Source of the DNA: Lama guanicoe
Lineage: Eukaryota
Direction: 5' to 3'
Assembly (NCBI GenBank): GCA_013239625.1
Contig: MU053881.1
Location: forward strand, 3,226,001-3,290,000
DNA: 64,000 nt
The translations under genes were made by a program, and so were the position numbers. This document shows positions 31,001-63,258 of the stretch, piece by piece. Every line of letters begins with the position of its first letter. Position 1 is the stretch's first letter. The notes beneath the pieces are model-generated. The model was given only the letters and a program-made list of their open reading frames with translations. It did no database searches and was not told the origin of the DNA.

Positions 31001-34000
31001 TTTTCCCCTAGATAACCTCAGAGCTCCTTCAAGTAGGGACCTTACAGACTCGTGCAAACGGAGGGTATTCGAAATGAAAAGTTTAAATGAATTAAAGACA
31101 GGAATTGTAAGTTTAAAAGACATATCTTCAAAGAGGTAAAAACTACAAAAAGTTAATTTGACTCTCGATTCTTTCTCCTCCCGATGATCTTTTCACGAAT
31201 AGCTTTCCAACATACAATAAACTGCACAGATTCACTGTGTACAAGTTTTGACATATGTCTTCAGCTGTGAAGCCATCACCACGATCAAAATAATGAACAC
31301 GTCCATCATCCCTAATGTCTTCCTTATTCCTCGTGCCCTGGGCTATTCCGCCGTCTTCCCTACACCGCAGGGTCACCCGCTCCCTGGCAACCTCTCATCT
31401 ACTTTCTGTCACTATGTATTAGTTCCTACTTTCTAGGATTACATATAGAGTAGCTACTGTCTTGGGTAATTATTCTGAGATTCATTCCTGTGGTTGTGTG
31501 CATCCAGAGCTCAGCACTTTTTGTTGCTGAGTTAGGTGTTCCCTTGTGTGGATTCATGACAATCAGATCAATCCATCCTCTTGTTGATGAACATCTGGCT
31601 TATTTCCAGTCTTTGGCAATTGCAAATAAAGCCGCTGCGAACATCTGGCTTTTATGGACTTGCGTTCTCATTTCTTCTAGGCAGATCCCTAGGAGTGAAA
31701 TGGCTGGGTCACATGGTAAGCTTCTGTTTCACTTTTTAAGAAACTGGCAAACTATAAGATTTGACATTCTCACCAGCAGGGGATGAGAGTTCCAGTTCCT
31801 CCACATCCTCATCAACACTTGTTATGGTCAGTCTTTTAAATTTTAGTCATTCTGACAAGCATTTCGTGGCAGCTAACATGGTTTTAATTTGAATTTCCCC
31901 AATGACTAAAGACACCGAGCATCTTCCCACGTGCGTATTTGACATCTGTATATATTTGGTGAAATGTCTGTGCAAACCTTTTGCCCATTTTTTTTTTTAA
32001 TTGGGTTGTTTTCTTGAACAAGTGTTGAGAGATCTTTATGTATTCTGGATACAAGTCATTTATCAGATATGTTCTTTGCATACATTTTCTCCCAGTCTGT
32101 TGTGTGAATGTTCATTTTCTTCGTAGCTTTCCAAGAACAGAATTTTACCATTTGGATTGAGTACAGAGGTGGGGTGTACTTGTTCGTTTATATATTTTAG
32201 TCAGTTTGTCAGTTTTTCTTTTTATGGGCGGGCTTTCAGTGTTGTGTCAAAAAAAAATCTTTGCCCAACTCTAGGTCTCAAAGAGGTTCTATTATATTTT
32301 CCTTTTAGGAGTTTGACAGTTGTAGTTTTCTTTATATTGAGATTTTATGGACCACTGGGAGTTGATTTTTATATATGGCACCTTCAGTTCCTGACACACG
32401 GCCAGCATCCCAGGCAACCTGACCATCCACAAGTCTCCCTGTACGTCACCCTCTGTGTCTTCTCGGAGCCTCTGCAGAGCATGTGCCCCCGGCCAGTCCT
32501 CTTCCAGCCTCTGCCCACCAACTGCAACTGAGGGAGAAGCCTCCTGTACGTTTCCTCCGTGCCCCACACTGTACTCACTGTGTCCTGGAACCACTTGCCC
32601 TGTGGCTCTCCCCACCACCGTGCTTCATGGTCCCTGAGAGCAGGGCTCATGCCCTATTTCTACGATTCTAGCACCTAGCACATTGCTTGGCATGCAACAG
32701 GCATTCGGCAGAGGGCTACTGAATAAAATATATAAATGAACAAATAAACGCCACCTCTACACTCAGTCAGCAGACAATCCTGGAAATCTACTGAGTAGTC
32801 AGAGCCGTCCACCTTTATTAAGGAAAATATGAAAAGAACCAGGGGTTAAGAAATGAGGGGCCCTTATCTGACCCAAACCACATCAGCTTTATTCTCAATG
32901 AAAATGCCAGTAAGGTAAAGAGAACATGGAAGCTATTCTTCAAGAAAACTGCTGGGCGAAGCAGCAGATTTTAAGCAGGGAACTTTCTGGTTGACTGCAC
33001 AGATTTCCGTGAGTCACCTGCCTCCAGCGAACGCCACCTCCCAGGGCTCCATTTGGGAAAAGACAAGGCGTAGGGCGGAAGGATGAGTCATTCCAAGGCC
33101 TCCCCAAGTGCACCGTTGAAAAAAAGCCAAGAACATTCAATTCATTTCATGTTTGCAGAGGAGTTTGGTCTTGTCCAAGGTAGAAGCCCAGATCAGTGCA
33201 CCCTTGCACAGAGGTGCATCTGGGCGCTGGAGCTGGGGACAGAGGGCTGACCACCGAGGCAGATGCCACCCACATGGACCTTACGAGCTGCTGAGGAGAT
33301 GATCGCTGAGCTTCTGTCAAAGGGGCCAGGAAAAAGCCTGCCTTTCAAGATAGCACGTGACAGTGCTTTGCAGGTGGAAATGCATGCAGGATGCACATCT
33401 AAGCAGCCTCTGCCTGGGTTTTCGTCACGGCACACTACCGATTAAGTCCAAAAGTTTTCTCTTCATGGGCAAAATGCAGTATTTCGGTCTGACAGCAACC
33501 ATGAACATGGCAGTGGGATGTACGTCTGAGGAGCTCAACCACATTCAGCTGTTGCTTTTTCAAAGCAGCATCCTCCACGGAGGCTGGAATGAGTTCAACT
33601 GTAACCAGAACCTATGGAGCTAGTGAGGCGCTGGGACTGCCTGGTGAGCTGCTCCGCCGGCCTCTCCCAACCTTGACACGGGGCTTCTGATGCCAGTGGC
33701 CCCTTCAGGCTCCACGTGAGACCCTTCGGGAGGTGGGGGGAGGGCAGAGGGGGAGTGAGGTAGCACACCTCCAAATTATTATTCATGCGTCTGGTTCCAA
33801 AGCAAAGCTGAAAGTCACCAACTAAGCCGAGGGAGGAAAACACAGTATTTACTCATTTACGATTGTGAAAAAGCCAAGGGCAGTGCGGCGATGGCAGGCC
33901 AGCTGCTTGGATCATCTGCTGGTTGCTTCATGTAAGAAAACGCCAGGCTGTATTTGTAGCAATTTCTGTCTGTGTCTCCGCAAGAAAATGATGCGATATG

Positions 34001-37000
34001 CCCAACTACGTCTTCTGTCACCAAGTGTTTGTCACCAAGGTATTAGAGGACAACCTGTGCAACAACATACGCCCTGGCAGAAGTACTGCCACCCCAGTGA
34101 CTTCTCAAGGGCCAGCAGAGAAGAGCACAGGGCATCAGTTCAATGCCTGTGAAGTTGCGGGTTTACCGGATGGGCCACTTCCTCCTAGCGTCACGCTGAT
34201 GGTCCCCACTGGAAGTTCACTTGACAGGTTTCTCCCTCAAAGCCTAAATCACTTCCCATGAGGAAAGCAGCGACGGACAGAGGAAGGAGCATTATCATCG
34301 TCACTATTTTCAGATTGTCTGAAAACCACTGAGATGTCAAGGTGGGTGAGTTCTAGATGTTTATGTAATACGGTAGTCTTACGATCTCGTCACCGTCCCA
34401 GCACATAAGCGAATTCCTTGGCAGCTTTAAAGAGCTCATCTTTTCTGAACTTTGCAGCAGAAAGAGACGTCGGCAAGATCTTTTCCTGGATCCTCAAAAT
34501 AAGAGCTTACCCAAGTAGGTGAAATGTCAAATGAGGTCACCATGACATTTTGGTCTTCAGGAATAGCTGTACTGATTAACTGTATGTAACTGTTTCACAG
34601 TTCTGTTTAATCTTACAGCTAAGGCTCTAGGAAGCCACCCGGGAGTTGGACGGGGACTCAGAGAGCTTTTGAGTGTGCAGCTTCATGGGGTGGCCCAGGG
34701 GTCTGTGGATTCCCCCGAAAACACTCTACCGAGCGATGGGGCAGTTCAGTCACCACAGTGCTACTGTGACACCCGATCGCACAAGTCACATCGCCATGTA
34801 AAACTGCAGGAGGAAGAAGCTCAGGGAATAGACTTCGTTCACACACCCAAAGCTCCCGAGGAAGAGCATGAGGGGGTGATGTAAGGGGGTCTTCTCCCTC
34901 CCACAGGGGTCGGTGCATCAACACGAAACCACCTGGGCACGCTGGTCAATCAAGGCTCTCAACATTTACTGCTTCTTCAAAGCACCCTTTCTTGGCTTAC
35001 TCTTCTAAGAATGTAATTGTGCTGGAAGTATTCAGGGTGAGCCTTAATCTTCCTTCTGGAGCCCACAGGGAGCAGACAAGCCCATGAACATGCCTGTTGG
35101 ACATTGAGAATTTTCCTAATCCCTGAAATCATTCAGAAAGCGCAGGCTGTGACCCATGTCCTTTGTTATTCAAAGTCCCATTGTGTCCCCTCAATGTTAC
35201 AGTTTGGTTTCTAAGACCCAAAACAATTCACCCCAAGAGGGCTGGAGTGTTCACCCCACATGCCTGCTCCTCCAGCCGGAGCCGGACCCATCCCTCCTGG
35301 TAGGTGTAACGGTGTCTGTTTCCAAACCCAGCATGAGCCCTATCCCGCCGCTTCCTACTTGCTATAAAAGCTGGAGTATGAAAGGTGAAGCATAAACACT
35401 ATTGCACTGAATCACAGAAGCTACAAAAAGAATACAGACAGTGCATAGAGATGTCTTAGTCTTAACATCACAGCTTCATCCTGTAATATTTTTCAGACCT
35501 CGAGGGGAGACGGCTGATAGATTAATGGATTGTTAGATACGATCACCACAGAAAGATACATCGGGGCACTAAATTCCGTGCTCTCGGAGGCTACCACTCC
35601 AAATTACTTTTTCCTTTCTGATAGTATGTATAGTGACTTACAAACGAATCATTCCAAACATGCCCCATCTTTTCATTATTACCCAGCTAGGGATCCGACT
35701 GGTGACTGAGATGAGTGTGTACCTGAGCATTAACCTCTGAAGAGAAGTGGGCAGTATTCAGTAAATGAAGGTTTGTGAGAGCTTTATCAAATGCCTGGTA
35801 TTAGAAATGAAGTCTTCCATGAAGTGCCCAACTGCCACTGGCCTTTCCGTCCTTTGCTCACTTTTTACCTGGGAAACACTCTGCATAGTTAGAAGTCTGA
35901 AAACGGAGGGGAAGGATGGAGACCCTGATAAACAGAAATGGGACTTACCTTGAGAAAGGCTTTCTTTTCCAAAGTGTTCATGATAAACGGCGGGATGGCT
36001 GGAAGGAAAGAAAGATCCACTTAATTCCTCATTAATGTCTATTTTCAGCTCAGATTTTTTTTTTCCCTCAACAATTTCACAAAAGGATCCTATTACTTTT
36101 AGGTTAGTTTCACACTGGTGGGGTAAAATTAATTGCAATTATTCCTTAAAATACCTTTGTATTAAAAAAAAAATCCACTGTTTCTACTCTCTAGATTTTG
36201 GAAGAAGAATGCAGTGCTTTTTGCTGGCCAGAAAATTTTATACTCCTGGAGAGAACTTTACATTGAACATTAAATGTGCAACAGTACAAACATTGGGGAC
36301 TTTCCCCACCTAAACCTATGAAACAAATGCAACCTTGCCCAGGTGTCCATTCCGTGTGGGGCAGAGTATATAGATTCCTGCCTTGAGTCAGGCAGACCAC
36401 CTGCTAGGTGGATGATCCTGGAAAAGCTCCCTCACCTTGCTTAGCCTCAGTTTTCTGTTTTCCTTGTCTATAAAACAGGGATAACTATTATCAAATTGGC
36501 CAGGATGAGTAGATACAATAATGCATTAAAAAAATAATGCACGTAGGCAGCATTAGCTCATTTACTCATGACTCAGACTCAACTATCACATCAACTGCTT
36601 CAATATGTCAGTTACCTTGTGGATTTCACTGGGACAGAAAGACTGTTTCTTCCTCAGGGGCTAGATAAATGTTTAAAGTAACCAAGCCACTGGGCACAAA
36701 CGCATTGGGCTTACCGAACTCCCAAGAGGAGCCTCGTTTTTCAAAATGGGAAAGAACAAAACCAAAAGCCAGCCCAGGGGAGATGCCAGGATTGCCACCT
36801 GGATTTCAGCAAGTCTGGAAGGCTGGGCTCAGCGGGCGTGACGACGTGCTGGTCCCGGACTAAGGGGACTTGGGACCTGCACTTCACAACGGTGGTTTCC
36901 ATGGTTCACCCACCCTCCACAGGGCACATCACTACCTCACAGGGGCACCGGGGTGTTTCTTTGTTAAATCATTTAATGGCGGTTAAATCATGTAACTGGG

Positions 37001-40000
37001 GAGCTGGAAGCCTCCTCAAACTTTCCTTTCATGCCGTTTTCTTCAACTCATTTGCCCACTCCTACCTGCCTGCAGATGAGCATTCACAGGGACGAAAGGC
37101 ATTTAAGGACAACAAAAAATATTAGTGGGGAAACTTGACAGCACTTGATGAAGTATGCTTTTCCTCCGAGAGCCTAGTTGACAGCCAAGTGCATTCAATT
37201 TAGGTGAAGAAATTAAACATACTAATTTTCATTTTTTTTCTGCAAAGAGTGATGTATTCTCAGGCCCTCTGGCTTCTGAGTAAGCCTGAGGACCTTCGTG
37301 AGAGCCCTGGTCTCAGGGTAGCTTAAGGAGCCTTAGGAGTGGACCAGAGATTCTCTGAGGACCTGAATAACAGCACAGATTTCCTGCTTTTGGCCGTGCT
37401 GACTCCAAGCCCTGTGGCTGAGAGGTAGCTTGGCACACATCTTCTTAAGAGCTGCTCTAACCAACTCGACTTGGTTCGTGTTTCAAGGGCTGCCAATGGA
37501 TACAAATATATCTTCAGTAGAAATGATATCCACTTAAGAACTTTTGGAAATTTCTTTTCAGGATTTACAAGGACCAGATTCTTTCCCTTCTGATTCTCAT
37601 CACCTCCACTGTCACCGCCCTGGTCCAACCACCATCATCTCTTGACTGCGGTACTTGACAGCTTCCTGACCAATCACCAACCACCATTCTTGTTCCCTCT
37701 TCACTCGGCTCTCAGCACAGCACCTGGAGTCATGCAGTTAAAACCCAGGCTGGATTGTTCCACTTCCCTGCTCAAAGCCCTCCATGGCCTCCTACTCCTC
37801 AGACTAAAAGGCAGGGTTCCATCCAAATGCCTGCGGGGCCACCCACATCCATCTACTCCATCCTACTGTTCCCACCTCCTTCTCTCTCCTCCAGCTGCAT
37901 CTGCCTCCCTGTGACGTTTTCAGCACCCCAGGCATGCTCCCTGCTCTCCTGCTGTTCCCTCTGCCCCGTAACCACCTGGCTCCCTCCCTCCCATCGGTCC
38001 AGTCTACTTCCACCCCCAGGTCCCCCACTCTCTTGTCCCTCTTAGCCCTATTACCATCTCACATGTTTTACTTAATTTGTTAGTTTTCTGCCTCCCCCCA
38101 CTGACCCCCCTACCACCAAAGCAGCTTCCACCAAGGGGAGTGATTCTCACTGCAGTTGCTCACTGCTGCGCAAACGCTTGCTTGGTGGAAATGTACCGGC
38201 TACATGAGTAGATGACACGGTTCTACGCACCCATGCCGGGGGCAGCCATGAGGATCCTGGACACGACCACTTGTGTGATGGCTTGTTTGGCAGCGTTTGC
38301 CGACTCGCCCACGCGGTTCCCATTTTCATCTGTGACGGGAATGCCAACTTTGAGTTCCCTAGAGAGCAAGACAACGTGCAAAGAAGTTCACAGGTGCCTT
38401 CAGCAAACAGCTGGAAACAGCTATAAAAGACCGAGTCCTTCCCTGATCCAAAAATCCACTCCGGTGACATTTTTGGCAAGAAACAAGTCTATTTTTAGAT
38501 ACCACGAATGAGTTTAATCCTCATGTGATAGACACGAAAGTAGAAGGACACTAGTAAACTTGGTCAGAAAAGGGCGTAGCATTTTCAGTAACACTACGAC
38601 TTAACGAGTGAATAGGCCAGATAAGGCTAATGTCTACACTTGTGTGCAAACTTGAGTAATTTTCCAAATGCGAGATGGATATCATACGTGGCATCATTAA
38701 GCAAGCTCACGATACTGACACGATACTGACACAGGGGTCATGAGTACACGGTGCTACTGGATTTTTAACTATGGTCACTAACACTATAATTACAGCTCCT
38801 ACTGTTACCCTGTTTTTCGTTATCCATTCCAAAATGCTTTTTCTCATTCTTTCTTCTCCTTTAATTTTTGCCAGTTCTAAAAAAATACTTCCAAAGATAT
38901 AGATTAATATTATTTTAAACCCCAAAAGAAAATTTGGGGGGAAGGGAAAAAAACCTCTTTTAGAGAAAAAGTCGTACGTAGCCGTTAAGTTTGAGATGTA
39001 TTTTTTAAAACTTTTTATTACACAGAAGTAGAAAGAGCATTCTAACCCCCTTGGGCCCAGCAGCCTGCTTTGATAACTAGTAACTCATGGGACCCTAATG
39101 ACCTCATCTACAAAACAGAAACAGACTCTCAGACTAGTAAACAGTCTTCCAGTTACTCGGGGAAAAGGGGCGGGAAGGGATTAAACTTGGCAGTTTGAGA
39201 TTTGTAAATGTTAACCACTATAAAAATTGATTAAAAAAATTTCTTCTGTATAGCACATGGAACTATATTTAATATCTTGTAATAGTCTTTAATGAAAAAG
39301 AATATGAAAATGAATATATGTGTATATATATGCATGACTGGGACATTGTGCTCTACACCAGAAACTGACACATTGTAACTGACTATACTTCAATTAAAAA
39401 AAAAAACTGTAACTCATGGCTAAGCTTGTTTTATCAGTAGACCCAGCCTCACCCCCAACATCAGATTATCTGGAAGCAGAAATCCCAGATCTCATATAAT
39501 TTCATCTGCAAATATTAAAATTAAAAAAAAATTAAAGTTTCAACAAAGCAAAGTATTATAAGGGCCCCCTACCGTCAAGGGCGAGTCCTCTCTTAGACTG
39601 TGTATTAACCTTACCTTTGCCTCATTAACGGAATATTAATGCAATTAGCAGCAGCTACCGCAGCGAAGGGAACAAAACGTCCTATGAGCGGAGAGACGTG
39701 CTGCAGAAAAGACAATTCCAAGAGCAACATCTTATTTTTCCCACAGGACTAAATGGAAATACTTCTTCCTTCTCCAAAACGGCTGACCAGGCAAAGTCCC
39801 ATTTGGGCAGAACCTCAGGGCCAAGAGCACTTTCAAAACTTGTTTCCCGGAGGTATTTTTATATTTCCGGCATGGTCACATGGGGATAAGGCAGACTTCC
39901 AAGATATTTTGATGGCTTCGTGTGGATGATGGAAAGGGGGGCTTTGCAGTCCCTGAGTCTTGGTTTCAGAGGCTGACTCCACCTCTCAGAGATGTGGCCG

Positions 40001-43000
40001 GAGGCACGCAGCCCAGCACGCAGCCCCCAATAGGCTGTTCGCGTGGGTGAGCATTTAGCCCATCACACACAGGGCCACGTACAGACCAGGGCCCTGGCTG
40101 ATCTTATTAGTGACCCCCCGCTTCCCAAGCTTATGGAAGATAGACTTAAAATATGCCGTTGAAGATAATGATGGTAAGAAGACCATCACAGGACTTGAAC
40201 CATTTTGAGAAATAACAGAGGGACTTAAAGAGTCAGCAGGTGAGAACTAAGAAGCTTTGCTATGGAAGCAGAAGCCTGAGTACCTTAGTTAGCGCGTTGA
40301 GTCCTAGAGCCGTTGCCACTGCACCTGTGGTGGCAGAGACGTACGCTGTCCCCAGTTCGCTGAAAAGAAGGAAAATAGTACGTGAACAACGAGGGAATCT
40401 CAGGACACCCAAGTCCAACACTTTGGGAAAGAGCATGATTAAGAATGGAGATTCAAGGGAGTGGGTATAGCTGAGTGGTAGAGCCCATGCTTAGCATGCA
40501 CGAGGTCCTGGGTTCAATCCCCAGCATCTCCATTAAAAAAAAATTTAAGAAAAATGGAGATTCCACAAAACAACATTCATTATCACTCCACAAGTAGAGA
40601 TACTCATAGAAAAAGCAAGCAGAGCTGCACAAAAATGGCATTCTTCACATATACCCTAACTACAGTGCCACCCAAGTAGACATACTAGAATATGTATGGT
40701 GGGGTGGGGTGGGGTGGGGTGGGGAAGGAGGGGGGCCGGATCGCAGGAAGCTGCAAACGAGGGGAAATGCATATTGGTCTAAATGTCTGGAGCGTATTTG
40801 CTCAAATAAGAATTATTCTCAAAATATCAATACTGAAAGTAAAAATGCAGTGCTGTCCTTCTTAAAACGACATCTTATTGTATAAAAATACTGTCTCATT
40901 CTGAAAAGGCAGCGAAGCCCAAGCAGTCCTCTCTCGTTTCAAAATAAATTTTAATTCAAGGATCGGGCGAAATGAAGGTGTGATAGGCGTGGCTGGGTTG
41001 CAGATGTCAACACCCTCTGTTCCCTAGGATGGTAACAGACGGACACGGGCGGTCAAAAGCACTTTGCGAGTTAAAATGAAAAGGAAAACACTTTGAAGTG
41101 TTACACAAGTTAGGCTAAAAGGTTTGGTGAACTGATCTCTCTAGACTAGCTAAACTTTTTTTTTTTAAACGAGAAGTAACATTTTAAATCCATTCATTTT
41201 CTTTTGGGCTCCATAGATGACCTATTTTAAAGACAAATCAGATACAAAAGTCCCCTTGGTTTCCGCAGAGATCACACTGTGCGGCCGCTACTCCTGACGG
41301 CCGGCTTATCTGTCCACGCGAACAGCGTAGACTGCAGGGGGTTACAAGTGGCCGCTCCCTACATTCTGTGAGCTGCCCGCTGTGTGCTGTGCGGGGGATG
41401 GTGGGGAAGGAGCCCCAGGGTGTGGGGGGCTTATCCCCCTACCAGTACCACCAACAGCATAACGGACAACCCCCGAGCAAAAGCAGGCTGCAAAAAACCT
41501 GTCATCTTGATAGAAAGGGAGGAAAAGAAACACTTCTGAAAAATATGCTCCCTAAGGCTCTGAACAATGTGGACACTTGATACAGAGAGACTCTTTTAAA
41601 CAGGAGAGCATGGCCACTGAATCAAATGAGCAGAGGATGGTCACGTCGAACGGTCATACTTCACAGTGAGGGGCGCGTCTCCGCTCCTGTTGGTGTAGTT
41701 GACCACGGCGTTGAAGGACTGGTTAATCCACTGCCAGAACAGCACGGCCGGCGTGGTCCTAGAACAGAGCGACCTGTCACACGCCCACCGCCGCTGGGAC
41801 CCCGGCACCGCGCACGACATGAAAGGGCAACACCAGGAACCAGAGGGTCAGAGAAGGGAGAACGCTGGGTCCAAGGCTTAGGATCGCTGGGGCCGGGCAG
41901 AATTTAAAGCTGTCTGCCTCTTAGTTCCCTCATTTGCTAGAGGCGGGCAGCAACAAACTCAGTGGGTTACGGGCAGAATGGAGTTAATGGAGTTAAATTT
42001 TATCTTCAGTCTCTAAAGAGCCTGGCAGAGAGTAGGCACTCAATTAATGTCAGGTCCCTCCTCTTGGGGAAAAAAGCCATTTGCAGGCTAAGTTGTTCTG
42101 GTCCCTCCTCACCGCATGTGGAAGCCTAGATGTCTGCACCCACACCTATACTTACACCCGTATCATAAGAATGGATTAAAAGGAGAATTTGCTTAGAGGC
42201 TCTTTTTATTTTCTTTCTCATTTTCTTCTGGGTCTAAGATTTAGGGAAAAACTCAACCTCCTTTGAGCCACAAGGAGAGTAGCTTTCGTCAGAAGGAAAC
42301 AGGAAAACAAGCCCCTAGACCTACATTGATACAAAATGAAACTCCCCACGAAATGATACTTATTTCAAGAAAACAACTCACATACAAAGACGTACTTTAA
42401 GCTTCTGTAACATAAAACAAACTGACTGCTGTCCCGTTGCCATAACTTGCCTGTAAAAGGTCATCATGCAGCCTGTGATGGTCATGTTCATCGGGACCTG
42501 GGCTGACATCCTTCCAATCAAAATCATCTTCTCTCCGGTGTCGGGATGAAAAGCTGAATCGTAGATGTACTTCGCTCTCCACAATTCATTTTCTGTAAGG
42601 CCCGGAGGAACGATTCCCTGTCTGGAAAGACAATAGCAAACAACATGGCAGGTGTCCATTTCGGAGACCTCACAACTGCTCCAGGAACAGGCAGCTAGAA
42701 GGTTTTCAAGTTTAAATTTACCTCGAACATCTGTGCCCAGATGGTGTGACCAATCTATTCCGTAGAGTCAGTGAAATTTTAATAGCCGATACTACACAAT
42801 AAACACTTAAAATGGGCATTTCTCAGGGTCCAGCAGCAAAGTTTACAGACCGCCCTGGGTGTCCTCCCTGACTCCCCACGTGACAGTCAAACATGGCACG
42901 TTTAGGCTCAGGGCTCCCACTTAAACCAGTTCTCAGCTTTTGCCCAACTCTCCCCAAGAGCAGGAATCAGCAAACTGGCTGTGGCCTGTACACTTTGTTA

Positions 43001-44461
43001 GCTAAGAGTGGTTTTTATATTTCTTAAAGGATTGTAAAACAAACAAAAAGCCCTGGAAAACAAACAAAAAACCCAAGTTAGGAAGAATATGCTATGTTCT
43101 GCAGAATAAGACAGAAACCCTTTATGGTCCACAAAAGCCTGGACTATTTCTTACATGGTCTTCTATCAAGAAAGCTGCGCGTCCACCAACAGATGAAGGG
43201 ATAAAGAAGATGTGGTATAGATACACAATGGAATACTACTCAGCCATAAAAAGAATGAAATCTCGCCATTTGCAACCACATGGATGGACTTGGAGGGTAT
43301 TATGCTGAGTGCAGTAAGTCAGACACAGAAAGACAAATACTGGATGATACTACTTATATGTGGAATCTAAAAAATATGACAAACTAGTGAAGATAACAAA
43401 AAAAGCAAACTCACAAATATAAAGAACAAACTAGTGTTACTAGTGGAGGGGTGGGCATTACAGAGGTGGGGGAGTGGAAGGTATAAACTACGGGGTGTAA
43501 GACAGGTTACAAGGATGTGCTGTATAACATGAGTAACAGAGCCAATATTTTGTAATAACTGTAAGTGGAGTGTAACCTTTAAAAATTGTATACAAATTTT
43601 CTTTTTAATTAAAAAAAAAAAAGTCGGCACCACTGTCTTAGAGCATATTTCTTCTCCCGCCTCATGCCTGGCCCTTTGAGCTGAAGGAGTCCATCCCAAA
43701 CCCATAAATCCTGCCATCAGCATCCTTCCCGTCTGAGAGCCCACCTGTGGGGTTTATTCATTGGGGTTTTATCTCAGAAGCAACCAACCTACCCTAATTT
43801 GTGACAACTTGCTTTTTGCATGATGTTGTCTCCATCTGGAGACAGAAAGATGTGGATGCAGGGGTGGCTGTACTGGAGAGCAGGAGGCAGGGAGCTAGGA
43901 GAGAGGACCTCACAGATTGGTACCCATGAATCGGAGGGGTGGCTGTCTTATTTTCAGGTTATTACAAACCCTGGGGGGGAGCGTAGAGCTCGGTGGTAGA
44001 GTGCATCTTAGCGTGCATGAGGTCCTGGGCACCAATCCCCATTAAAATAAATAAACCTATATACCTCCCCCCAAAACAAAACAAAACAAAACCCCAAAAA
44101 AGAAACAAACCCTGGATATTTGTGTTAAGGGTCAGCAATGGGGGATAAAACACGTCTTCCTATTTCTTACTTTTTTTTTGTAAAAATAATTGCAAAAAAA
44201 AATGTTGAAAAATCACTAAGGGAAGGTTTAAAGACAACAGGCTAACATGATGACCCATTACTGTGTTAAGTCAAAAAAGCGTAATTGCTAACATTACCTG
44301 TAATCATGCACCACTTTTCTTGCATCCTCTAGCTGCTCATTGGTTAAGAGAATATTCCTGGGGTCAGTCACAGTGAAGAAATGATTGGCTCGTCCAACAA
44401 AAGTGCTTTGATCCCATCGGGGCTCTCTGATGTTAATGTTTGGTGGGAGTTCTCCAGACAT
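24944..44461 (-). CDS. SFXN1: Sideroflexin-1, spliced CDS join(44298-44461,42451-42621,41660-41758,40284-40359,39615-39700,38231-38358,35949-35998,29433-29482,28792-28839,24944-25040), 322 aa
   Basis: Exon lengths 164+171+99+76+86+128+50+50+48+97=969 nt splice in frame from [21 protein letters not shown] to [12 protein letters not shown]. The product contains the sideroflexin HPDTGE motif and closely matches mammalian SFXN1 as I recall it. All acceptors are AG; donors are GT except one GC. Confidence 0.98.
26200..27400. mobile_element. Degraded old L1 fragments in the SFXN1 last intron (both orientations)
   Basis: CATTTCTAGGAATTCGTCCATTTT... (L1 on the minus strand) followed by AGAATGGATAATTGTGGTGTATTCATACAGTGG (L1 on the plus strand). 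Confidence 0.6.
28792..28839 (-). CDS. SFXN1: SFXN1 coding exon 9
   Basis: Acceptor tttttaag|C; encodes [15 protein letters not shown]; donor AG|gtatgt. Confidence 0.96.
29209..29335 (+). mobile_element. tRNA-Ala-derived SINE (vic-1-like), antisense to SFXN1
   Basis: Near-intact head with AGC anticodon arm, A-rich tail, degenerate TSD TGTATCCCA/TGTGTCCCA. Confidence 0.9.
29433..29482 (-). CDS. SFXN1: SFXN1 coding exon 8
   Basis: Acceptor caacacag|AGG; encodes [16 protein letters not shown]; donor TG|gtgagt. Confidence 0.96.
31190..32370 (-). mobile_element. Old L1 (L1MB-like) 3' region
   Basis: ACATACAATAAACTGCAC...GATCCCTAGGAGTGAAATGGCTGGGTCACATGGTAAG...TATTCTGGATACAAGTC. Confidence 0.8.
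35949..35998 (-). CDS. SFXN1: SFXN1 coding exon 7
   Basis: Acceptor ccttccag|CC; encodes [16 protein letters not shown]; donor AAG|gtaagt. Confidence 0.96.
37590..38110 (+). mobile_element. L2 fragment
   Basis: CACTGTCACCGCCCTGGTCCAACCACCATCATCTC...CCTGCTCAAAGCCCTCCATGGCCTCC. Confidence 0.7.
38231..38358 (-). CDS. SFXN1: SFXN1 coding exon 6
   Basis: Acceptor ctctctag|G; encodes [42 protein letters not shown]; donor G|gtgcgt. Confidence 0.96.
39091..39406 (+). mobile_element. 5'-truncated young L1 with poly(A) and TSD
   Basis: TSD GTAACTCATGG (39080-39090, 39409-39419); ends ACTATACTTCAATTAAAAAAA. Confidence 0.9.
39615..39700 (-). CDS. SFXN1: SFXN1 coding exon 5
   Basis: Acceptor ttctgcag|CAC; encodes [28 protein letters not shown]; donor AG|gtaagg. 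Confidence 0.96.
40284..40359 (-). CDS. SFXN1: SFXN1 coding exon 4
   Basis: Acceptor cttttcag|C; encodes [25 protein letters not shown]; donor AAG|gtactc. Confidence 0.96.
40457..40550 (+). mobile_element. tRNA-derived SINE (vic-1-like), antisense to SFXN1
   Basis: Intact head; TSD core AATGGAGATTC on both sides. Confidence 0.92.
41660..41758 (-). CDS. SFXN1: SFXN1 coding exon 3
   Basis: Acceptor tgttctag|G; encodes [32 protein letters not shown]; donor AA|gtatga. Confidence 0.96.
42451..42621 (-). CDS. SFXN1: SFXN1 coding exon 2
   Basis: Acceptor tctttccag|A; encodes [56 protein letters not shown]; donor AG|gcaagt (GC). Confidence 0.96.
42961..43635 (+). mobile_element. MER58-like DNA transposon interrupted near its end by an L1 3' fragment (~43180-43622)
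   Basis: CAGGAATCAGCAAACT...AGCTAAGAGTGGTTTTTATATTT...; the L1 part reads GTCCACCAACAGATGAAGGGATAAAGAAGATGTGG...poly(A). Confidence 0.75.
43975..44104 (+). mobile_element. tRNA-derived SINE (vic-1-like), antisense to SFXN1
   Basis: Perfect TSD ACAAACCCTGG (43964-43974, 44105-44115); B box partly deleted. Confidence 0.9.
44298..44461 (-). CDS. SFXN1: SFXN1 first coding exon (exon starts 44470 with 9 nt of 5'UTR)
   Basis: Acceptor ccctccacag|TCCAGGACG ATG; encodes [55 protein letters not shown]; donor AG|gtaatg. Confidence 0.97.
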
Positions 44462-47400
44462 CGTCCTGGACTGTGGAGGGTCAAACAGATAAGCCTGCTC
44501 AAGACTTACAATGTCACTGTACATTTAGAAACTCTGTATTCACACTAATCTTCAAAGAAAGAGTTAAGTACATTCCTAGTTACAAAAATAACTTTGCTAT
44601 AAACGGCAGAAAGACGTTCTAAATCCAAAGCTACATTTGTCTGTAAATCTCAATGAAGCTTCATCAAATTTCAGTAATTGTCTCATGCACTTCTTTTTAT
44701 AAGTACACAGTATCTCATCATCCCTTACTTTTGGAAATCTATAAATACTTTAGGGAAAAAATAACAATGTAAAAAGTTAAAAATAACATTCATAGTAAGA
44801 GGGTCTGAAGTTCGAAACCCTTTTTCTGGATGAAATAACCAACCAACGTCAAACTACTGTCGCCTTCTGGTTTACTAAATTTGTTATTCCTACGAGTAGA
44901 AGTGACTCATTATGCAAAAAGGGCTCACACGCTAAAAATTCTACAATTAAAAAAAGATGCAGATTCATTCAGCCTTATTCGGCATATAAACTACCAATCA
45001 AAAATGAAAAATTCTGTTCTTTAATCTAATGGGGTCATAGTGGGAAAAACACATTTTGACAACCCTATGAATGGTAATGGCATGGTGCATGTAATTTTCC
45101 TTACAAAATACTTATTTTCTGGCTAAGAACCATGACTCTTTTCCCAAAAGTAACTAATATCTTTCTCTGAGTAACACATGCTTATTTTTAGAATTGCTCT
45201 GTATTGCTGTAACACACGTTTATTGTAGTATTTTGAATAATATAAGCTTATTGTAGGAAATAAAGAAGAAACAAAATCTGCTATAATTCAGCCACGCTTG
45301 AAATAACCATTGTTGACATTCTGGTATATTTCCTTGCAGACATTTTCTATACATATTATCATTTAATTAAAAAAAATAAAGTTGCCATCATATTCTGTAC
45401 TTTAATATCCTAATTGTTTCTTGCACTTATTTCAAGAGCATTCCCTACGGCACAGAATATTCATTTTGGGTATTTAGCAACACCTACAATGCTTATGTTC
45501 CTTTCAATTTGTCGCCATGATAACGAAAGCTGTATCCTTGTCTACTAATCTTTTTCCTTGTAGATGGTGACTTCCTTGAACTAGAATCTCTCTATATGCT
45601 ATGAGCAGGTCAAAGGATCTTCTCTCCCTTAAGGCTTCAAACCATTGCTTTCTTGTACCTGTTCCCTTTTCTTCCAGTTCTAATAATGGTTCTAATAGTG
45701 GCTTTCTTTTCCAGGTCATTTTTCATTATCTTTCAGTGCTTCACTAGTTCGTAGGTGTGTTAGATGTCAGGTGCAGAGGCCTGTCACCTGTACTTCATCA
45801 GAATCTCAAATTAACACACGTCATGGCCCACTGGGTCAAAGTCGTGTGTCAGGTCCACAGACGTGAGGAAACGAGATTCCTACGTGAAACTGAAGCAGCT
45901 GGTCAGTGCGAGTGAGAAAGTCAAAAATCAGCCCCAGCACTCATACAGCAGGCTGGGAAGACGCACACACACAAACTCAGCTGTGCAGTCAGTGGGAACC
46001 CATGTTTCTCCCAGCGTCACGATGCAGCTGTCAAGTGTCAGGACAATCCCCTTCCCTGGGTGACCACCGCTTTCTCATCTCGCTGAGAAACCTGGTTCTC
46101 CACAACTGCAGACTGTCAGAAACTCTGCTGTCTGAAATCGTGCCAGGAAGAATGGAACATCCCACTCTTGACACAGCAAAGGAGCCTCCGTTTCCAGGCC
46201 AGGTGCGGAGTACCTGATGAGGGAGTTTCTGGATACATTACAAGTCTTGTTAACTTTGCAGTTTCCAAGGAAACAGGGCCATGGGGCTACCTCACAGTCC
46301 AGATCTTTACACCCAGCCCTGCTTTGAGCCCATCAAAATATTGCTTCATTATACTTCCCTCCTCGGGGCACTGTCCCTTCCCACAAAGCCGCCGGCACAG
46401 ACTGGTGGTTCCAACCAACGGAACACACTGCAATCACCTGGAAAACGTCTGAAAAAGACACACACTGTCTTTCTTCGGATCCAGGAGGTCTAGCATGGGA
46501 TTCTGCAGGCGCCCTGGGTGCAGAGCTCCAGCTCCCTCTGCATGAAGCTGGGGGCTGCTTCCTTCCCTACATCTCTCCCTGCTCTGCCTACGCCTTCCCT
46601 CAGGCCTGGGCAATCCGCAGTGCCCCCCAGGGGATATCTGATACAGATTTTTTGTCTCATAAAATTCAGTACCAAGTATCTTTCTTCCCTTTAAGGTATA
46701 ATTCTCACTCTCACCATTCATTCCCCCTTTATACTTCATGTATGCAACAAAAAATTTTTTAAATGTAGCTTTCATAGAGTTCTCAATAACAAACCATCTC
46801 CAATCTGTTAAACAGAAGGCAAACTTTAGGTCAAGTCATCAAAACATGATCTGGTTTTATAACATGGTACTTTATAAAATAAAACTGTTCTAATTGCATA
46901 AGAGCTGGGTAGGGCCTTAAAATCGATCTACCCACTGTGCTGATCACACAGATGAGGAAACAGAGGCACAGAGCGGGAGGCATCTTGTCCGGGTTGGGCC
47001 ACGGGCGCTGGCAGCAGAAGGAGGTTGGGGACGACCCAAAGCCAGACTGGATTCCTGGGCACTGGTCAGCCAGTTCACTCTTTTGACTACATTATTCCCT
47101 TTTAGCTACTTCCCTCTTTCCCAACAAAGTATATCAACTGATGTCTGCACAGAATCGGTAGCTTTGAGGCCCTCCTTTTTCCTTTTAAATGAAAAAGTGT
47201 CCACTCACATTATGAAGTTCTGCACCAAGATAACCCAATGGTGACTGTGGAGGCCCCACAAGGTCTCCTCCGGCAGGAGGAGCAAAAGCAGACAGACGGG
47301 AAAGGAACCCCAACATTTCTGGAGTTTCTGTTACATACAAGGAACTGGGCTAGATGCTTGCCAAAAGTGCAAGCTCCTACTATGTGCCAGCGGCAGCACA

Positions 47401-48042: not shown

Positions 48043-49594
48043 ACAGCACTGTTTTCCGTACTTAAAAAGGACCTTAATGGAACTAGACACGGACGTAAGA
48101 AATACCAACTAGATGGGACAGCCTGTCCCCGCCCCCGCCAATTTCAAAACCTTTACAAAGGCTAATCAGGAATGCCATAACAACAGTCTCACAGAGACAG
48201 CTGATCTCAAAGCAGACACGATTCTAATTATTAACTATGAATCCCATGTTCCAATTAGACAAGCATTTTCACACATGAACCTTCAAGCACAGGAACAGTT
48301 TTTACTTTTTTCCACTCCAAGTAACCAGTTTCTAACCATTAGGAGTCCTAGTTTTATTGGCTGCCATGCCCGGATCCCTGGGGCCTGTCCCCTTTCCGCC
48401 CCACTGACTGCTGGGGCTTGGGGGTCCTGGTCACTTGGTCGGAGGTCTGCAGCATCCCGGGAGCCCATCGGCTGGCGGGCGGCCTTGGATGCTGCAGTCC
48501 GTGCTTAAGGGTTTCCACCCTGCACACTCGGTACCAACCGACCCCAACCGACGGATGGAGGGGTGAGCCGGGCTGTGAGGCAAGGGCCGCAGCCGGCACC
48601 TTCTTGGCAAGAAAGCCGCGTCCCCAGGATGGTAGGGGAAGAATGGATTTGGCGTCCCCCTGGTCGGATTTATGCAGAAAAAGCGCAGCCATCCTTGAAC
48701 TTGCCGGCCATGAACTTTCCTCCCTCTGTCCCCACTAAGGGTGAAACTGGTCAGAGACCAGACACTTTTTCAGTGTTCTTAAGCACCGCTAACCACGCGG
48801 TTCTGACAGATTTCAAGACAGGGGATGGTGACAGTTTTTCAAGTGCTTCTCAACGAGGAATTTCTGCAGAGGACACTAGGGAAGTCAATCTGCTGTGCTG
48901 CCCTCAGGATGACACTGGGGACAGCACGAAGGATTGCAAAGCCACAGTGGCTCAAAAGACAGTTTCAGAGAACAAGATACATCTTCCAATTGCAGAGGTG
49001 GCAGGAATAAGGGAAAATGCTACATCTCAAGGGGACAGACTGCACGGGACGCCGAAGAGTGTGTGCTAGAAGGTGAGTTTATCAGCTTTACACCCCAAAC
49101 AAGTGAAAGGTGCCCTGGAGGGACTCCGAAGACACCAGTGGGAGGATCTTCTCTTTGACACATCTACCTGAGGCTTTGACAGTTAAGCAGAATGGCTGAA
49201 ACAGCTTCAGAAATTCAGAGAGGCCATGGAAGGAGAGGCGGGAAGGGTGGAAACATCACAGATACTGACAGACTAAGTGAGGAGCTCCCCAGGAGAATTT
49301 TACTAACCAGGTACCAGCTGGTTTAACAACCGCAGGTGGTCAACTGCAAAATGTTACGGCTGACACAAAATCCTACCAGCGGACTTCTGATGTCAACAAA
49401 TTCAGTATCCATGATTTGAAGAAATGATGGAATCGGGGTTGTAGAGAAGCAGAGGAGGCTGGAAGAGTCTGGAACAGAGAAATTAAGAGGAACTGACTGG
49501 TGAAAGGAGGTCTCTGTATATTTAAATGGTTATAATGAGGCCTCCTGACACTTGGCCAATTGGGGTATTAGTTCTGACTTAAGAATATTTTTCA

Positions 49595-49716
49595 GGGAGG
49601 AGGGTGTAGCTCAAGAGTTCAAGAGCACATGCTTAGCATGCATGAGGTCCTGGGTTCAAGCCCCAGGACCTCCTCTAAAAATAAATAAATAAACCTAATT
49701 ATCCACTCCCTCCAAA
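49595..49716 (+). mobile_element. tRNA-derived SINE (vic-1-like), antisense to SFXN1
   Basis: TSD AAGAATATTTTTCA (49581-49594) / AAGAATCTTCTTCA (49717-49730). Confidence 0.9.
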
Positions 49717-55190: not shown

Positions 55191-55319
55191 GCTACTGTCA
55201 TTCTGAGGAGGTTGGAGGCCTGTGACAAGTTAGGCAGCACAGAAATGCAGGGTCCGAGCCGGGTCACTGCTATGCCAACCACTTGCCTGTGTCTTCCCTA
55301 CCAGGTTGGGAGTTAGCTG

Positions 55320-56070
55320 CAGGGCCGGGAACAGGTGGTCTGCTCTGGCCCCGCAGCCCCGCTCTGCGCCAGGGGGAGAAGCCGGGAGCTAGGAGCTTGA
55401 GGGGCGGGGGGGGGGGGGGGGGGACAGCAGTCGCTCGCGCGCGTCCCCGCCGTGGCCTGTCCCCGCGGCAGCCATCTTGGGTGTCCTCCCCGCGGCGAGT
55501 TTCGTCACGCGGCCGCGGGGACAGCGTGGCAGAGCGCGTGCGGGCGTGGATGGGTGAGCCCCCTCCCATCCGGGGGGACCCACTTCACCTCGGGGGTTCA
55601 AGGGGACCCCCGGGGCGGTCAGGCTGCTGGAGGTGGGGAGCTCAGGCAGCGGGATGCCAGGGGTCCCCAAGGTGCAGGCACCCCTGGCCCTGGGAGTCCC
55701 AGGTACGGCCAGGGGGCGTCCGCCCTCCCAGCCGGGGGAGGAGCGGGGGGGCTCTTCGCAACCTGCCGGCGGCCGCGCGCCCCCGCTCCAGCCCGCGCCC
55801 CTCCGCCGGGCCCCCAGTGTCCTTCCCGCCCCCCGCGCCCGGGCCCGCCACAAAAAAAAACGCCCGGAGCGCGCCCCCGTGCGGAGCCGCGAGGCCGGGC
55901 CAGGCGGCGGCGCGCGCGGGCCCGGGGACACGGCCTCGCAGTCGCTGCGCTCTGGGCCCCGCCACCCGCCTGTCCGGGCGCGATCGCCTGCGCGCGCCGC
56001 CTTTGCGTCTGGCTGCATCGTGAACTCCCGAGCGCATCCTCACCGTGGTGTGGGGCTGGCGCCACGTTTT
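55320..56070. promoter_or_regulatory. CpG island, probable SFXN1 promoter / non-coding exon 1 region
   Basis: Very GC- and CpG-dense, with GC boxes, a YY1 motif GCCATCTTG (55471-55479) and GCGC-rich NRF1-like stretches. Lies ~11 kb upstream of the first coding exon and is the only strong island in the window. Confidence 0.85.
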
Positions 56071-56429
56071 CCGTTTTGGTTTCCCAGAGGGACGACCCCT
56101 TACTCGCTCATTTCTCTGTATCCCCAGGGTCATACATAGAGTCAGCATCCACTCACTCACGTATTTAAACCATTGTTTCCCAAAGTGTGGCATTTGCCAC
56201 CACTGGGGCTACAAGGCGATTTTCGGTGGTACAAAGGCCATGGGAATCATCCTGGCTGCTGGGTGAATAGGCTATTGAGGAGGTGACGTGGAGGCAGAGA
56301 GGCCAGTAGGGAGGCAATGGTGCTTAACCAGCGGAGAGATGATGCTGGCTTGGACCAGGTTGGTAACAGGGGAGATGACGAGAATCATTGGATTCTGGGT
56401 ATCTTTTTGAGGCAGATGAAATCTAATAA

Positions 56430-57639: not shown

Positions 57640-58640
57640 AGTGTCTCCGTTATCTGTTGCCATGGTAATGCTGCAGCAGAACCACAAAGCCTCAAAAGGA
57701 TACAAATATAAACATGGTTTTTATTCGTGCGCGCGTGCGCGCGCGCTGGCTAGCAGTTCTGCGGATCTGAGCTGGGCTCTGCAAGGCTTACTCACGTGTG
57801 TGTCAGTTGGTGGCTTTGTGGGTCTTGGCAAGGCTGTCTCACTGCTTGAAGCCATAGCTAGGAGGAGTGGACTGACTTGGCTCTGTTCCAAGTCTCATTC
57901 CTCCGGCAAACCAACCTGGGCTTGTTTACATGGCAATGGCGGAGGGAGGGAGGGAAGGGGAATGAGAAAGAGAGACAGAGAGACTGCTCACTTTTGCTTT
58001 ATCCTATTGGTCAAACCAAGTCACAAGACCGACCTAGATTCTTTATCTCTTGATGGGAGGAGCTTCAAAGTGACATTATAAATAGATGTGGTATACAGAC
58101 AGGTGGGGAATTGGGAGCATGATTTTTCACAAATTCCTTCTTGTGTGTATTTTGCTTTCCTAGCATCCCAGTTTCTTTTGGGGAGCTCCCCACTCTGACT
58201 TCATTTCGCCCTGGTCAGATTGTCAATCATGGGACTATATCCTCTCATGCCTGCCGCTGTCATGGGTATGTGTCCCAAGCTGAGCCAAACAGAATCCTGC
58301 CCTGAATTTATATTCAGACACTGAGAAAATAGGAAGTCATGCCCTTCCTCCACCCCTACTGGGGCTGCTAAGCTGGGAGAATGTGGATCAGGCGCTGCCA
58401 GGGCTACTCCTTTTGCCTGTCCGCGGAATTGAAACTGACCTGAAAAATGCAAGAGAGAGAGAAGAATTCTGATGAGGTCACTGCAGGCCCCTGGCTCCTC
58501 CAGTCCTGAAGCTAGATCTACCTCCCAGGCTTCCAGTTATAGGAACCCTAAATCCAACCACACACACATTTCTTTTTTTTAAAAAAAATCATAAGCTCTT
58601 TTGAGTTGGATTTCTATCTCTGACTGACTGGGATGTTCAC
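57640..58640. mobile_element. Old MaLR (MLT1-type) LTR fragments
   Basis: GTTATCTGTTGCCATGGTAATGCTGC...CCTATTGGTCAAACCAAGTCACAAGACC; a second fragment has CCAGTCCTGAAGCTAGATCTACC. Confidence 0.55.
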
Positions 58641-59585: not shown

Positions 59586-62283
59586 CAGTGAAATCAAAGC
59601 CTTAAATTCTAGATTCTATTAGCAATGCTATATATGACGACAAAATAAATACATAATCAGATGCATTTGAAATGTAAGGAAAAGTTCACGGGCACACTCC
59701 TTGCTATTCGCCAGCACTCTCCCTGAGAGATTTTTTAGTATGTTTCTTTCTAGGATGTTCTTTTCTTTTCTGACCCAGTCAAACTTCCGTTTCTCCTGTG
59801 CTTGAGTTTCTACCGTCTTATGTATGAACATAAGCATGTGGACCTGGGCTTAAGAACACGGGTCTTGGGAGGCAGACCAGCCTGGCTTTTGATTCCATCT
59901 CTGCCCTGATCGCCTGTGAGATCCTAGACAGATGAGTTCCTTAACCTCTCTTGTGCCTTCGCTTCTTTATCTCTAAAGTAGGGATGAGGCCAACACCCTT
60001 CCTCCTGGGGCTTTTGTGGAAACTACCTGAAATGACGGATGTGGCGAGATTAGCTGAGCGCCTGGCCCCGTGCGAGCCTGGATAATTGAGAGCTGTTGTT
60101 ATTGGGGTTCTAGCTTCAGGGCTCCTACAGCACTTCAAAAGTCTCTCTGTGGGTACTTACCTCGTGGTACTGAACCATTGCTTTATAGTCCTGTCTTCTC
60201 TCTAGACTGTGAATGATTTAAAATAAGAAAATCTTACTCAATTTTCCTGGTGTCTAGCACAATACAGTGCAGGTCGGGTGGTGGATTCAGTATTTGTTTG
60301 CTAAATATGTTAGAGCCGTGATGCGCGTATTTTATGATCTGCTTTCTTCACTTAACGGTATGGTTCCTAAACATTCTCTCGGGTGACATTATAATCCTCC
60401 TCATTCATTCATTCATTCATTCATTCATGCTTTTTTTCAGTAAATGCTTATTGCTCATCAATTCTCCATTAATAATTGTTCCAGGCACTGGGGATTCTAC
60501 ATCCAAAGGGACAGATTTAACCCCCTGCCCTCCTGCAGCTGACATTCTGGAAAGGAGAGATGGACGGTCAACACGGAATGTGCACAGTACGCAGTGGTGG
60601 TAGGTGCGATTGACAGCTTGAGCAGGGAGGGGTGGCAGGAAGGCTGGTCATGGCAGAGCTCTGGGGCAAGTGTCCTCTCTCATTTCAGCGGCTGTGGAGC
60701 AGTCCAAGGAGCAGCCGTGTCATCCTCCACTCAGCTGAGCCGGGAGACTCTTTGCACACTTGTCACTCAGGCGGGCGAGGACCTTGTGGCCTCCACCCCC
60801 GAATGTCAGACTCTGCAACTTGCACAAGAGCCACTGCTGCTCCCGGAGCTGCTTCCTGCAGCCACCGCTGGAATGGATGCTCCACTGTCTGGGCACGTGC
60901 ATCCGACCGGCTGAGCTGAGGTCACGTGCCAGGGCCACACCAAGTCTTTTCTGTAGAGGCTGATGATCTGTTCCCCACTCACATAGGATGGAGAATTGAA
61001 TCAACCCAGGAAGTTCCCTCACGCTGTTCCTCAGTCAGTACATGCCTCGATTCCTTGATTCCTCCAGGGGTAACACTGTCCTGATTTCTATCACCTGCTT
61101 TCTGTGATCTAACACTAACTTCTAATTAGCTTTATCTCTTCTGGAAGTTTCTCTAAATGGAATCATACAGTATATGCTTTTTCTTGGTTGAAGTATAGTA
61201 CTGATTTACGGTGCTGTGTTAGTTTCTGGTGTACAGCATGGTGATTCAGTTACAGAGTGTGCATCTTTGAATGTGTGTCTGGCTTCCTTCATTCAGCATG
61301 TTTTTGAGATTTATCCATATTGTTGGATGTAGTTGTAGTTTGTTTTTTCGCATCATGTAGAATTCTGGTTTATATGAAAATACCACACTTTTTGTATCCA
61401 TTTCTGAATTGATGACCCTTTACGATGTTTCCCATTTAGGGTTATTATGAATAAAGTGGCTGTGATGTGGACATTCAAACTTTTTATGAATGTAAGAGGA
61501 GTTTTGTTTGTTTTGTTTTGTTTTTTTTACATTTAGTTTGCAATGTTTGGGGCATGTGCTTTGACCTAATTTTTGCCTCCAGAGTGATCTTCCCAAGATC
61601 TGATGTTTTATGTCAGTCCCCACATGAAAGCTGGTTTTTGCCACCAGATAAAGTCCAACCTCTGTGGTACGGCATTCAAGGCTTTCTGATACTGATTTAC
61701 CCCCCAAGCAGCTTCAGGTCCTTCCTTGCACCCTGATGCAGGCACATTGACCAGCTCACTGTTTCCAGGACACACCAGTTTGCTTTATTCCTCTTTGCCT
61801 TTGAACAAATTTTGTCTGGAGTATCTTTCCCCAGAGAGTCTTGATTCCTGGACGAACTGATACACATCCCTCAAAACCTAGTTGGAAGACACCTCCTCCA
61901 GGAAGTTGTCCTTCAATTTGCCAGGCACTTTATTGTACCCTTCATTGGGTACAGTAACATTTGGTATTCATGTTGTTAGAGCACTTATTTCATCACATAA
62001 ATTGCTGTGATCATGGGCTGTCTCCTTTTCTTGTCTGGGACCTCTATAAGCAGAAGAGAAGGCTCAGAGCTGTGAAGTGACGTGCTTAATGCCACACAGC
62101 TTCTGTGACTCCTGGTCTGCCTGATTCCAGGTTAAATACTCTTAACACTATAGCACATGGTGGATTGCATGCTAATTGCCATGCACAAGGTTAATGGAGC
62201 CCAGGGGCTGGAGCTCTAAGGCCCTGAGGGTCAGTAGGTCTTGGTGATGGCACCAGCAGAGTGTGGATCTGGGGCCAAGTGGT

Positions 62284-62389
62284 CAGGGCACACCCACCAG
62301 AGGGCGCAGGGCACACCCACAGAGGGCGCAGGCCACACCCACCAGAGGGCGCAGGCCACACCCACCAGAAGGCGCAGGGCACACCCACC
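62284..62389 (+). repeat. 23-bp minisatellite CAGG(G/C)CACACCCACCAGAGGGCG x4.6, inside a MER102-like hAT remnant
   Basis: Units at 62284, 62307 (22 bp), 62329, 62352 and a partial unit at 62375. The flank CAAATTGTTGCCATG...TTCAAGAGAAACCAGAAATCC looks like MER102. Confidence 0.92.
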
Positions 62390-62805
62390 CCGCCAAATTG
62401 TTGCCATGGAAATATGAGTTCCAAGGGGCCACATCTTGTGACTTCTTTCAAGAGAAACCAGAAATCCACAGACTATGTAGATTTTCCTAGTTTTTGAATG
62501 TTGATAAGTTAGTATATTAAATACAAGGTAAGACAATCAAAAAACATCCATGGGCTGGATTCAGGCCATTGTTCACTGATCCGCTCTTGGTGCCCCAAGC
62601 TTTGTCAGGCAGAGTCTGCATTCTGATGATGGGAAGGGAACACGTTGAAGTTAAGAATGATCGATGACTACTTGTAGTCCAGACCGAGATGCACCTGAAA
62701 ACCAACGCAAATCTCCTGGTCGTCTCTGATGTGCCATTTGTTTGCTGGTTTACTCATTACGTTCTCTGATGTCTCTTGGGTTAAGCCCCATGAGGGTACT
62801 GTGGC

Positions 62806-63258
62806 TGTTAGAGCCGGCAGATAGCTAGACATGAGCAGAGAAAAGGGGACACAGGCCAAAAGGCAGGAATTGAGCAAAAAGGAAGGGGCGTGGGCCAAAC
62901 ACAGGAAATCATACATTATGTAAACAACAGGGGTTCCTGGGCAGACAGAGAAAAGCAGGAACCTCTGGGTGAAAAAGGGGTCACACATTTCGGGGTAACA
63001 AGCGGCCTGGAGGCCGACAAAGAAAGATGGGAAAAGGCAGGAATCTCCAGTGTCTGAATGTAACCTTTGCTCATTATGCCCTCATTTCAATAAAATTAGC
63101 CTTGCAGATTAGACGTACCCATCATGCACCGACACCATGACACTTCTGGTCCAGATGAAATAAGGACAAAAACTTCTCCTCTCTCCAGGAAGGTGGAGTT
63201 GGGATGAGAATCAGGGAATATGATCTGAAACCCTTTCTCCCCAAAAGAAGATACTCTG
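62806..63258 (+). mobile_element. ERV LTR family Y copy 2, 3'-truncated
   Basis: TGTTAGAGCCGGCAGATAGCTAGA... is the reverse-complement homolog of 6180 going leftwards; homology stops near 63258. Confidence 0.85.

Follow-up and report, generated by a model that had tools for sequence, protein, structure and literature searches.

A CTCF-motif minisatellite with two intact and two damaged predicted cores upstream of the presumed SFXN1 promoter in Lama guanicoe

In a 64,000-nucleotide stretch of the Lama guanicoe genome (contig MU053881.1, positions 3,226,001 to 3,290,000 of the forward strand; hereafter the window, with positions counted from its first letter), we found a 106-bp minisatellite at 62284-62389 (+) in which two of the four full units carry an intact predicted CTCF core and two carry a damaged one. 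It is rather probable that a core-only CTCF motif was copied here by slippage, that two of the copies decayed, and that what is left is one modest directional barrier with putative CTCF binding. On this account, a single core-only motif ~6 kb upstream of the SFXN1 island would have been multiplied by replication slippage, and damage to the cores of two copies would then have left two intact, co-oriented cores. The element would bind a single CTCF molecule, or a pair on alternate units in the manner of 2xCTS sites, and would act on cohesin as a modest barrier in one direction, oriented away from SFXN1. Extra units would contribute little, since neighbours clash and the unit at the variable position is a damaged one. 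On its best reading, the array would be no more than a double site within a single peak and not a copy-number-tuned barrier.

Tandem Repeats Finder reported the array with a period of 23, 4.7 copies, 94% matches and a score of 184, the highest among its 101 rows in the 64-kb window, and head-to-tail units of this period lie within the 10-60 bp that define a minisatellite. The sequence-only reading of this DNA that preceded our analysis had described a 23-bp unit repeated 4.6 times, and this description was borne out, with successive units of 23, 22, 23, 23 and 15 bp (Table 1). Units 1 and 3 differ only at position 5 and units 3 and 4 only at position 19, unit 2 has one base deleted relative to the other full units, and units 3 and 4 have a private base in common. 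That the units differ at only one or two positions and by one deletion supports the earlier suggestion that a single motif was amplified by slippage. Apart from position 5, all three differences between units (one deletion, one substitution and the truncated fifth unit) fall in the core half. Within the array, we obtained no support for a hairpin (z = -0.74) and found no four-tract G-quadruplex pattern on either strand with loops of up to 12.

Table 1. Coordinates of the array, its predicted cores and the surrounding features of the window.
Feature	Coordinates	Strand	Remarks
Further exon frame, sideroflexin gene	24947-25345	-	listed with the exons
Coding exons, sideroflexin gene	28773-44524	-	Pfam sideroflexin (PF03820) match in 6/6 frames, 5 above the curated cut-off
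CpG island, presumed sideroflexin promoter	55300-56100 (about)	-	GC 0.70, CpG o/e 0.81
Candidate old hAT-Charlie (MER102-like) element around the array	62250-62585, limits approximate	-	putative, by resemblance
Unit 1	62284-62306	+	23 bp
Unit 2	62307-62328	+	22 bp
Unit 3	62329-62351	+	23 bp
Unit 4	62352-62374	+	23 bp
Partial unit 5	62375-62389	+	15 bp, CACCC-box half, no complete core
Intact CTCF core (predicted), unit 1	62294-62307	+	exact pattern match; 13/14 identities to the canonical core (PMC10589630)
Damaged core, unit 2	62316-62329	+	2 mismatches; 1-bp deletion shifts the 5' half; 11/14
Intact CTCF core (predicted), unit 3	62339-62352	+	exact pattern match; 13/14
Damaged core, unit 4	62362-62375	+	1 mismatch; A at core position 9; 12/14
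Near-palindrome, presumably RFX X-box-like	62400-62413	.	10 bp after the array

The cores of units 1 and 3 match the degenerate CTCF core, the part of the motif read by ZF3-7, perfectly and those of units 2 and 4 fail to do so, all four being predicted motifs judged by comparison with a consensus. The two cores that the sequence-only reading had placed at 62294-62307 and 62339-62352 are exact matches on the + strand. Its picture of a four-site array gave way to one in which only two of four motifs are intact, the deletion of unit 2 and the substitution of unit 4 both falling in the core; at core position 9, where unit 4 has A, the consensus presumably has G or T. The array's four cores are the only matches in the 64 kb with at most two mismatches to the earlier reading's pattern, and all of them are on the + strand. 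Shuffled sequences gave a mean of 0.63 such matches, and none of 100 shuffles reached four, a test that overstates significance because it treats four copies of one event as independent. Fairer nulls put the expectation at 0.066 perfect degenerate cores per 64 kb and recovered a perfect core in 41 of 300,000 shuffled circular units. The core match is unlikely locally, yet chance cores are numerous genome-wide, with ~2,000 perfect ones expected in 2 Gb at the composition of the window. Against the canonical core and 19-mer, for which we used the sequence printed in PMC10589630 as reference, the cores of units 1 and 3 are the best matches within the window; none of the five core-flanking positions of the 19-mer matches in any unit, and the overall identity of the two intact sites is 13/19. 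A degenerate CTCF-like 14-mer in the same orientation (62253-62266, 41 bp before the unit 1 core) has two mismatches to the degenerate core; the window contains 25 matches of this quality.

The shared orientation of the four motifs, pointing away from the sideroflexin gene, was as previously claimed; by the usual convention, they presumably face higher coordinates. The intact cores of units 1 and 3 are 45 bp apart, start to start, and neighbouring 15-bp cores are separated by 8 bp. Because ZF3-11 of CTCF span ~33 bp (PMC12885311), this geometry indicates that adjacent units probably exclude each other's CTCF binding, which supports the earlier suggestion that sites at 23-bp spacing may not be bound simultaneously. 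The literature on steric limits of adjacent CTCF sites contained nothing decisive among the matches listed. An upstream ZF9-11 motif, sought 5-10 bp before the core, was not found in the four units, whose best scores were 4-6 of 10 identities, and ~13% of background windows reach at least 6/10. As this motif is described as necessary for enhancer blocking at IL3 (PMC12885311), the array lacks the upstream element that characterizes enhancer-blocking insulators of the IL3/HS4 type.

Each of the four full units has kept one CpG, as the sequence-only reading had observed, and within the core this CpG sits at position 12 only, position 2 reading CA. Methylation at position 12 is reported in a review to improve CTCF binding marginally and methylation at position 2 to block it (PMC6222495), with C2 methylation of the motif strand dominant in inhibiting binding (PMC10325916). 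Since the CpG is at the tolerated position 12 rather than at position 2, methylation of the array would neither refute nor switch CTCF binding, and full CpG methylation, earlier proposed as a refutation, is a weak one. The observed/expected CpG ratio is 0.29 in the array, 0.33 in the kilobase to its right, 0.11 in the kilobase to its left and 0.81 in the island; for the array, this ratio gives no hint of protection other than what recent copying would leave. A CACACCC box is present in all five units, which upholds that part of an earlier KLF claim, but the full KLF-type octamer CCACACCC is present only in units 3 and 4. The shorter word CACCC has 170 occurrences across the 64 kb (94 + 76).

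The stretch was present in 20 of the 24 public sequencing runs listed (four organisms, eight studies). We compared the contigs of four runs, one per organism, with the window, and two of these runs (X6 and X7) covered the array; the other two (X1 and X4) contributed no contigs, and no run contributed any to the right of 62363, which filtering of contigs can explain. X6 yielded pieces at 61800-62318 (519 bp of left flank, no differences), 62289-62320 (32 bp) and 62291-62363 (73 bp, one other letter), at depths of 35.5:50:30.7, respectively, and X7 yielded pieces at 61800-62318 (519 bp, two differences) as well as 62289-62363 (75 bp, a single letter changed). Units 1-3 stand unchanged in the contigs of both runs, which rules out, for these units, the assembly artefact that the sequence-only reading had named as a possible refutation. 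Directly after unit 3, the array differs between genomes: X6 and X7 both carry a different unit than the window, with contig pieces that reach only 62363, and the window's junction of units 3 and 4 was seen in neither of these two runs.

Eight allele models were tested for X6 with de Bruijn graphs at k = 31, the value assumed for the run contigs. The window allele was rejected because its longest repeated word is 27 bp and it would therefore assemble unbroken at this k; a single unit and loss of unit 3 also gave one unbroken contig each, and doubling of unit 3 and a repeat of unit 1 after unit 3 each gave extra pieces. The X6 pieces were reproduced by three of the eight models. In one, unit 4 is lost; in another, it differs by one base at its position 5; the third doubles units 2-3 and is disfavoured since it needs depths of 1:3:2 rather than those observed. 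A window/short heterozygote did not fit either, as it too gave extra pieces. Contig breaks were reproduced exactly by the fitting models (519/32/73 for X6 and 519/75 for X7), and X7 fits unit 4 loss with a different or missing exit. Although unit 4 loss and the one-base variant predict identical visible contigs, loss (leaving 3.6 units) seems the likelier of the two, given the private base found in both unit 3 and unit 4. Two intact cores remain in every fitting model. Of the earlier suggestion of copy-number variability, variation of the array between genomes is supported; it concerns the position of damaged unit 4, and the count of intact cores stays at two.

The array lies ~6.2 kb beyond the CpG island, in agreement with the ~6 kb upstream distance first given, and we take the gene, from its N-terminal peptide words, to be SFXN1 rather than a paralogue. 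A PDB sequence search with one sideroflexin exon returned no matches. DRD1 is outside the window; we take the SFXN1-DRD1 pair to be present in human synteny also. The mouse Sfxn1 gene is located within the promoter-side region of Drd1a (PMC3982106). Among the matches listed, judged by title and abstract start, the literature on SFXN1 and DRD1 held no paper on CTCF sites of the interval, and among those listed for camelids, CTCF, minisatellites and SFXN1, none concerned the locus.

Other features of the window include the near-palindromes at 62400-62413 and 57656-57669, which presumably represent an RFX X-box-like motif, are the only two + strand occurrences of a shared 10-mer and are both upstream of the island. 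Two repeat pairs (62806-63223/5767-6180 and 59107-59585/9805-10288; 80% and 84% identical) look LTR-like by eye, with the copy at 62806-63223 starting ~400 bp beyond the array's end. The window also has six copies of a tRNA-like SINE that is very short, ends in an A-rich tail and is of a kind typical of camelids (3515-3642, 4942-4997, 15929-16022, 29208-29306, 40439-40544 and 49579-49691), and a 23-base G run (55401-55423, 90% pure) inside the CpG island is likely to vary in length or to resist sequencing.

Flanking the array on either side is sequence that looks like a minus-strand hAT-Charlie element of MER102 type, which would make an old transposon the putative host of the motif. There is no second copy of the putative remnant in the window, and two metagenome scans for copies gave 0 and 7 matches, none of which extends convincingly beyond the seed; with 14 sides tested, the best flank extension among the seven loci was reached by 6 of 200 shuffles. 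One metagenome contig (L004:1-1019; GC 0.41, CpG o/e 0.14) has a vertebrate-like composition, is probably host contamination and has no similarity to the window beyond the seed. Inverted arms at 62119-62130 and 62555-62566 (12 nt, 92%) are weak and are one of 15 such pairs. We found no paper treating MER102 and CTCF together in the literature searched; MER102b is described as a Neurod2-associated element (PMC10257727).

The copied-motif account draws on the local rarity of a perfect core, the private base common to units 3 and 4, the presence of units 1-3 in X6 and X7, the two intact cores in the fitting alleles, the CpG at the tolerated position 12, and the double footprints reported for co-oriented motif pairs (PMC4562119). 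An unlikely rival is that the array is a neutral, unbound minisatellite in closed chromatin, in which a slippage-prone, GC-rich word matched the core by chance and is decaying free of constraint. Damage inside the core in two of four copies, the concentration of differences in the core half, a CpG ratio at background, the missing ZF9-11 motif and the ~2,000 chance cores per 2 Gb are all consistent with neutrality, as is the resemblance of the 5' half of the core to the Chi-like word of classical minisatellites; the chance cores and the non-canonical flanks also weigh directly against the copied-motif account. Both intact cores persist in the window, X6 and X7, and all four CpGs are retained, observations that speak against neutral decay but that recent origin also explains; moreover, perfect CTCF cores are often bound in mammals. 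AkitaV2 predictions, in which only a small fraction of CTCF sites influences folding and ~15 bp of flanking sequence has a role (PMC11828424), also count against the copied-motif account.

We give little credence to the model first put forward for this locus, an insulator of variable copy number that would gain strength with each added unit and would separate the regulation of SFXN1 from that of DRD1. The variation between genomes, the co-orientation of all motifs and the mouse Sfxn1-Drd1a arrangement (PMC3982106) accord with it, as do reports that more sites give more predicted insulation (PMC11828424), that tandem CTCF sites insulate (PMC7087399) and that a VNTR at HRNR varies in CTCF-site count (proposed in bioRxiv 10.1101/2022.03.17.484784). 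However, the effect of site number was predicted at 180-bp spacing with 30-bp flanks and needs strong sites, arrays of weak or non-boundary sites having failed to insulate (PMC11828424), whereas the array offers two intact cores, with neighbours 8 bp apart, instead of several strong, separately bindable sites with flanks of their own. The intact count of two in every fitting allele model and the lack of the ZF9-11 motif argue in the same direction, and the notion of dosage tuning was not sustained. It is likewise improbable that the array is an enhancer-like or germline element, acting through CACCC boxes (KLF/SP) and the RFX-like palindrome at 62400 or through BORIS on a double site in testis. 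The CACACCC box in every unit fits this idea, 2xCTS regions show an enrichment of BORIS and of the marks of active promoters and enhancers (PMC4562119), and CTCF-bound VNTRs with 22-23-bp units modulate reporter expression at SLC6A4 (PMC2848977), but the full KLF octamer is confined to two of five units, CACCC is common throughout the window and the array shows no CpG enrichment.

Several described systems resemble the array in part. DXPas34 of mouse Tsix (PMC3149622) is likewise a minisatellite restricted to a lineage, in which each monomer (30-34 bp in mouse) contains a CTCF motif, with a copy number that differs between species and a proposed mobile-element origin; it is CpG-rich, comprises several blocks and has been studied functionally, whereas the array is 106 bp long, is not CpG-rich and has two intact predicted cores. 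2xCTS sites (PMC4562119) share with it two co-oriented motifs close enough for one ChIP peak, but these sites are defined by occupancy, double footprints and conservation and lie mostly at active promoters or enhancers. Their double footprints come from co-oriented motifs with a 30-40-bp linker and from sites 33 and 58 bp apart, whereas 25 bp separate the 20-bp cores of units 1 and 3, a shorter linker than in the 30-40-bp class, which counts against the copied-motif account. The LPR and STin2 VNTRs of SLC6A4 (PMC2848977) also offer 22-23-bp units upstream of a gene, and CTCF binds this VNTR; there, 14-16 copies stand 1.2 kb from the start site with ChIP and reporter evidence, whereas the array, at a distance of 6 kb, has 3.6-4.6 copies and a near-canonical core. 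At HRNR (bioRxiv 10.1101/2022.03.17.484784), a similar proposal is that repeat expansion raises the number of CTCF motifs and thereby changes how the locus folds, but that repeat is coding and of kilobase scale, with a motif count that tracks length (r = 0.996), unlike the constant intact count in the alleles seen here. Finally, hAT families supply loop-anchor CTCF sites (bioRxiv 10.1101/2022.02.01.475239), and the hAT-derived sites of MER20 and MER91B (bioRxiv 10.1101/2022.02.01.475239, PMC10589630) parallel a motif carried by what is putatively an old hAT remnant. In those families, transposition spreads the motifs, whereas the array appears to be one copy amplified in place, in an element whose family assignment is putative.

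Judged by its sequence, the array is a small further CTCF-motif minisatellite of a kind already described, with a putative function. A stronger reading, which we consider very improbable, is that a transposon-borne site became a polymorphic array in which selection or steric sieving preserved intact cores in alternate units only, giving a lineage-specific double site with co-bindable 45-bp spacing that would strengthen a boundary between broadly expressed SFXN1 and neuron-specific DRD1 and would be tuned by unit-number alleles. If that were true, the alternate-unit double site would show, on a small scale and in nature, the birth of a CTCF cluster. If the array is bound at all, it would provide a natural experiment, with natural alleles, on co-occupancy and added barrier strength at 23-bp versus 45-bp CTCF spacing, and, by mouse synteny, this experiment would adjoin a gene pair that includes DRD1.
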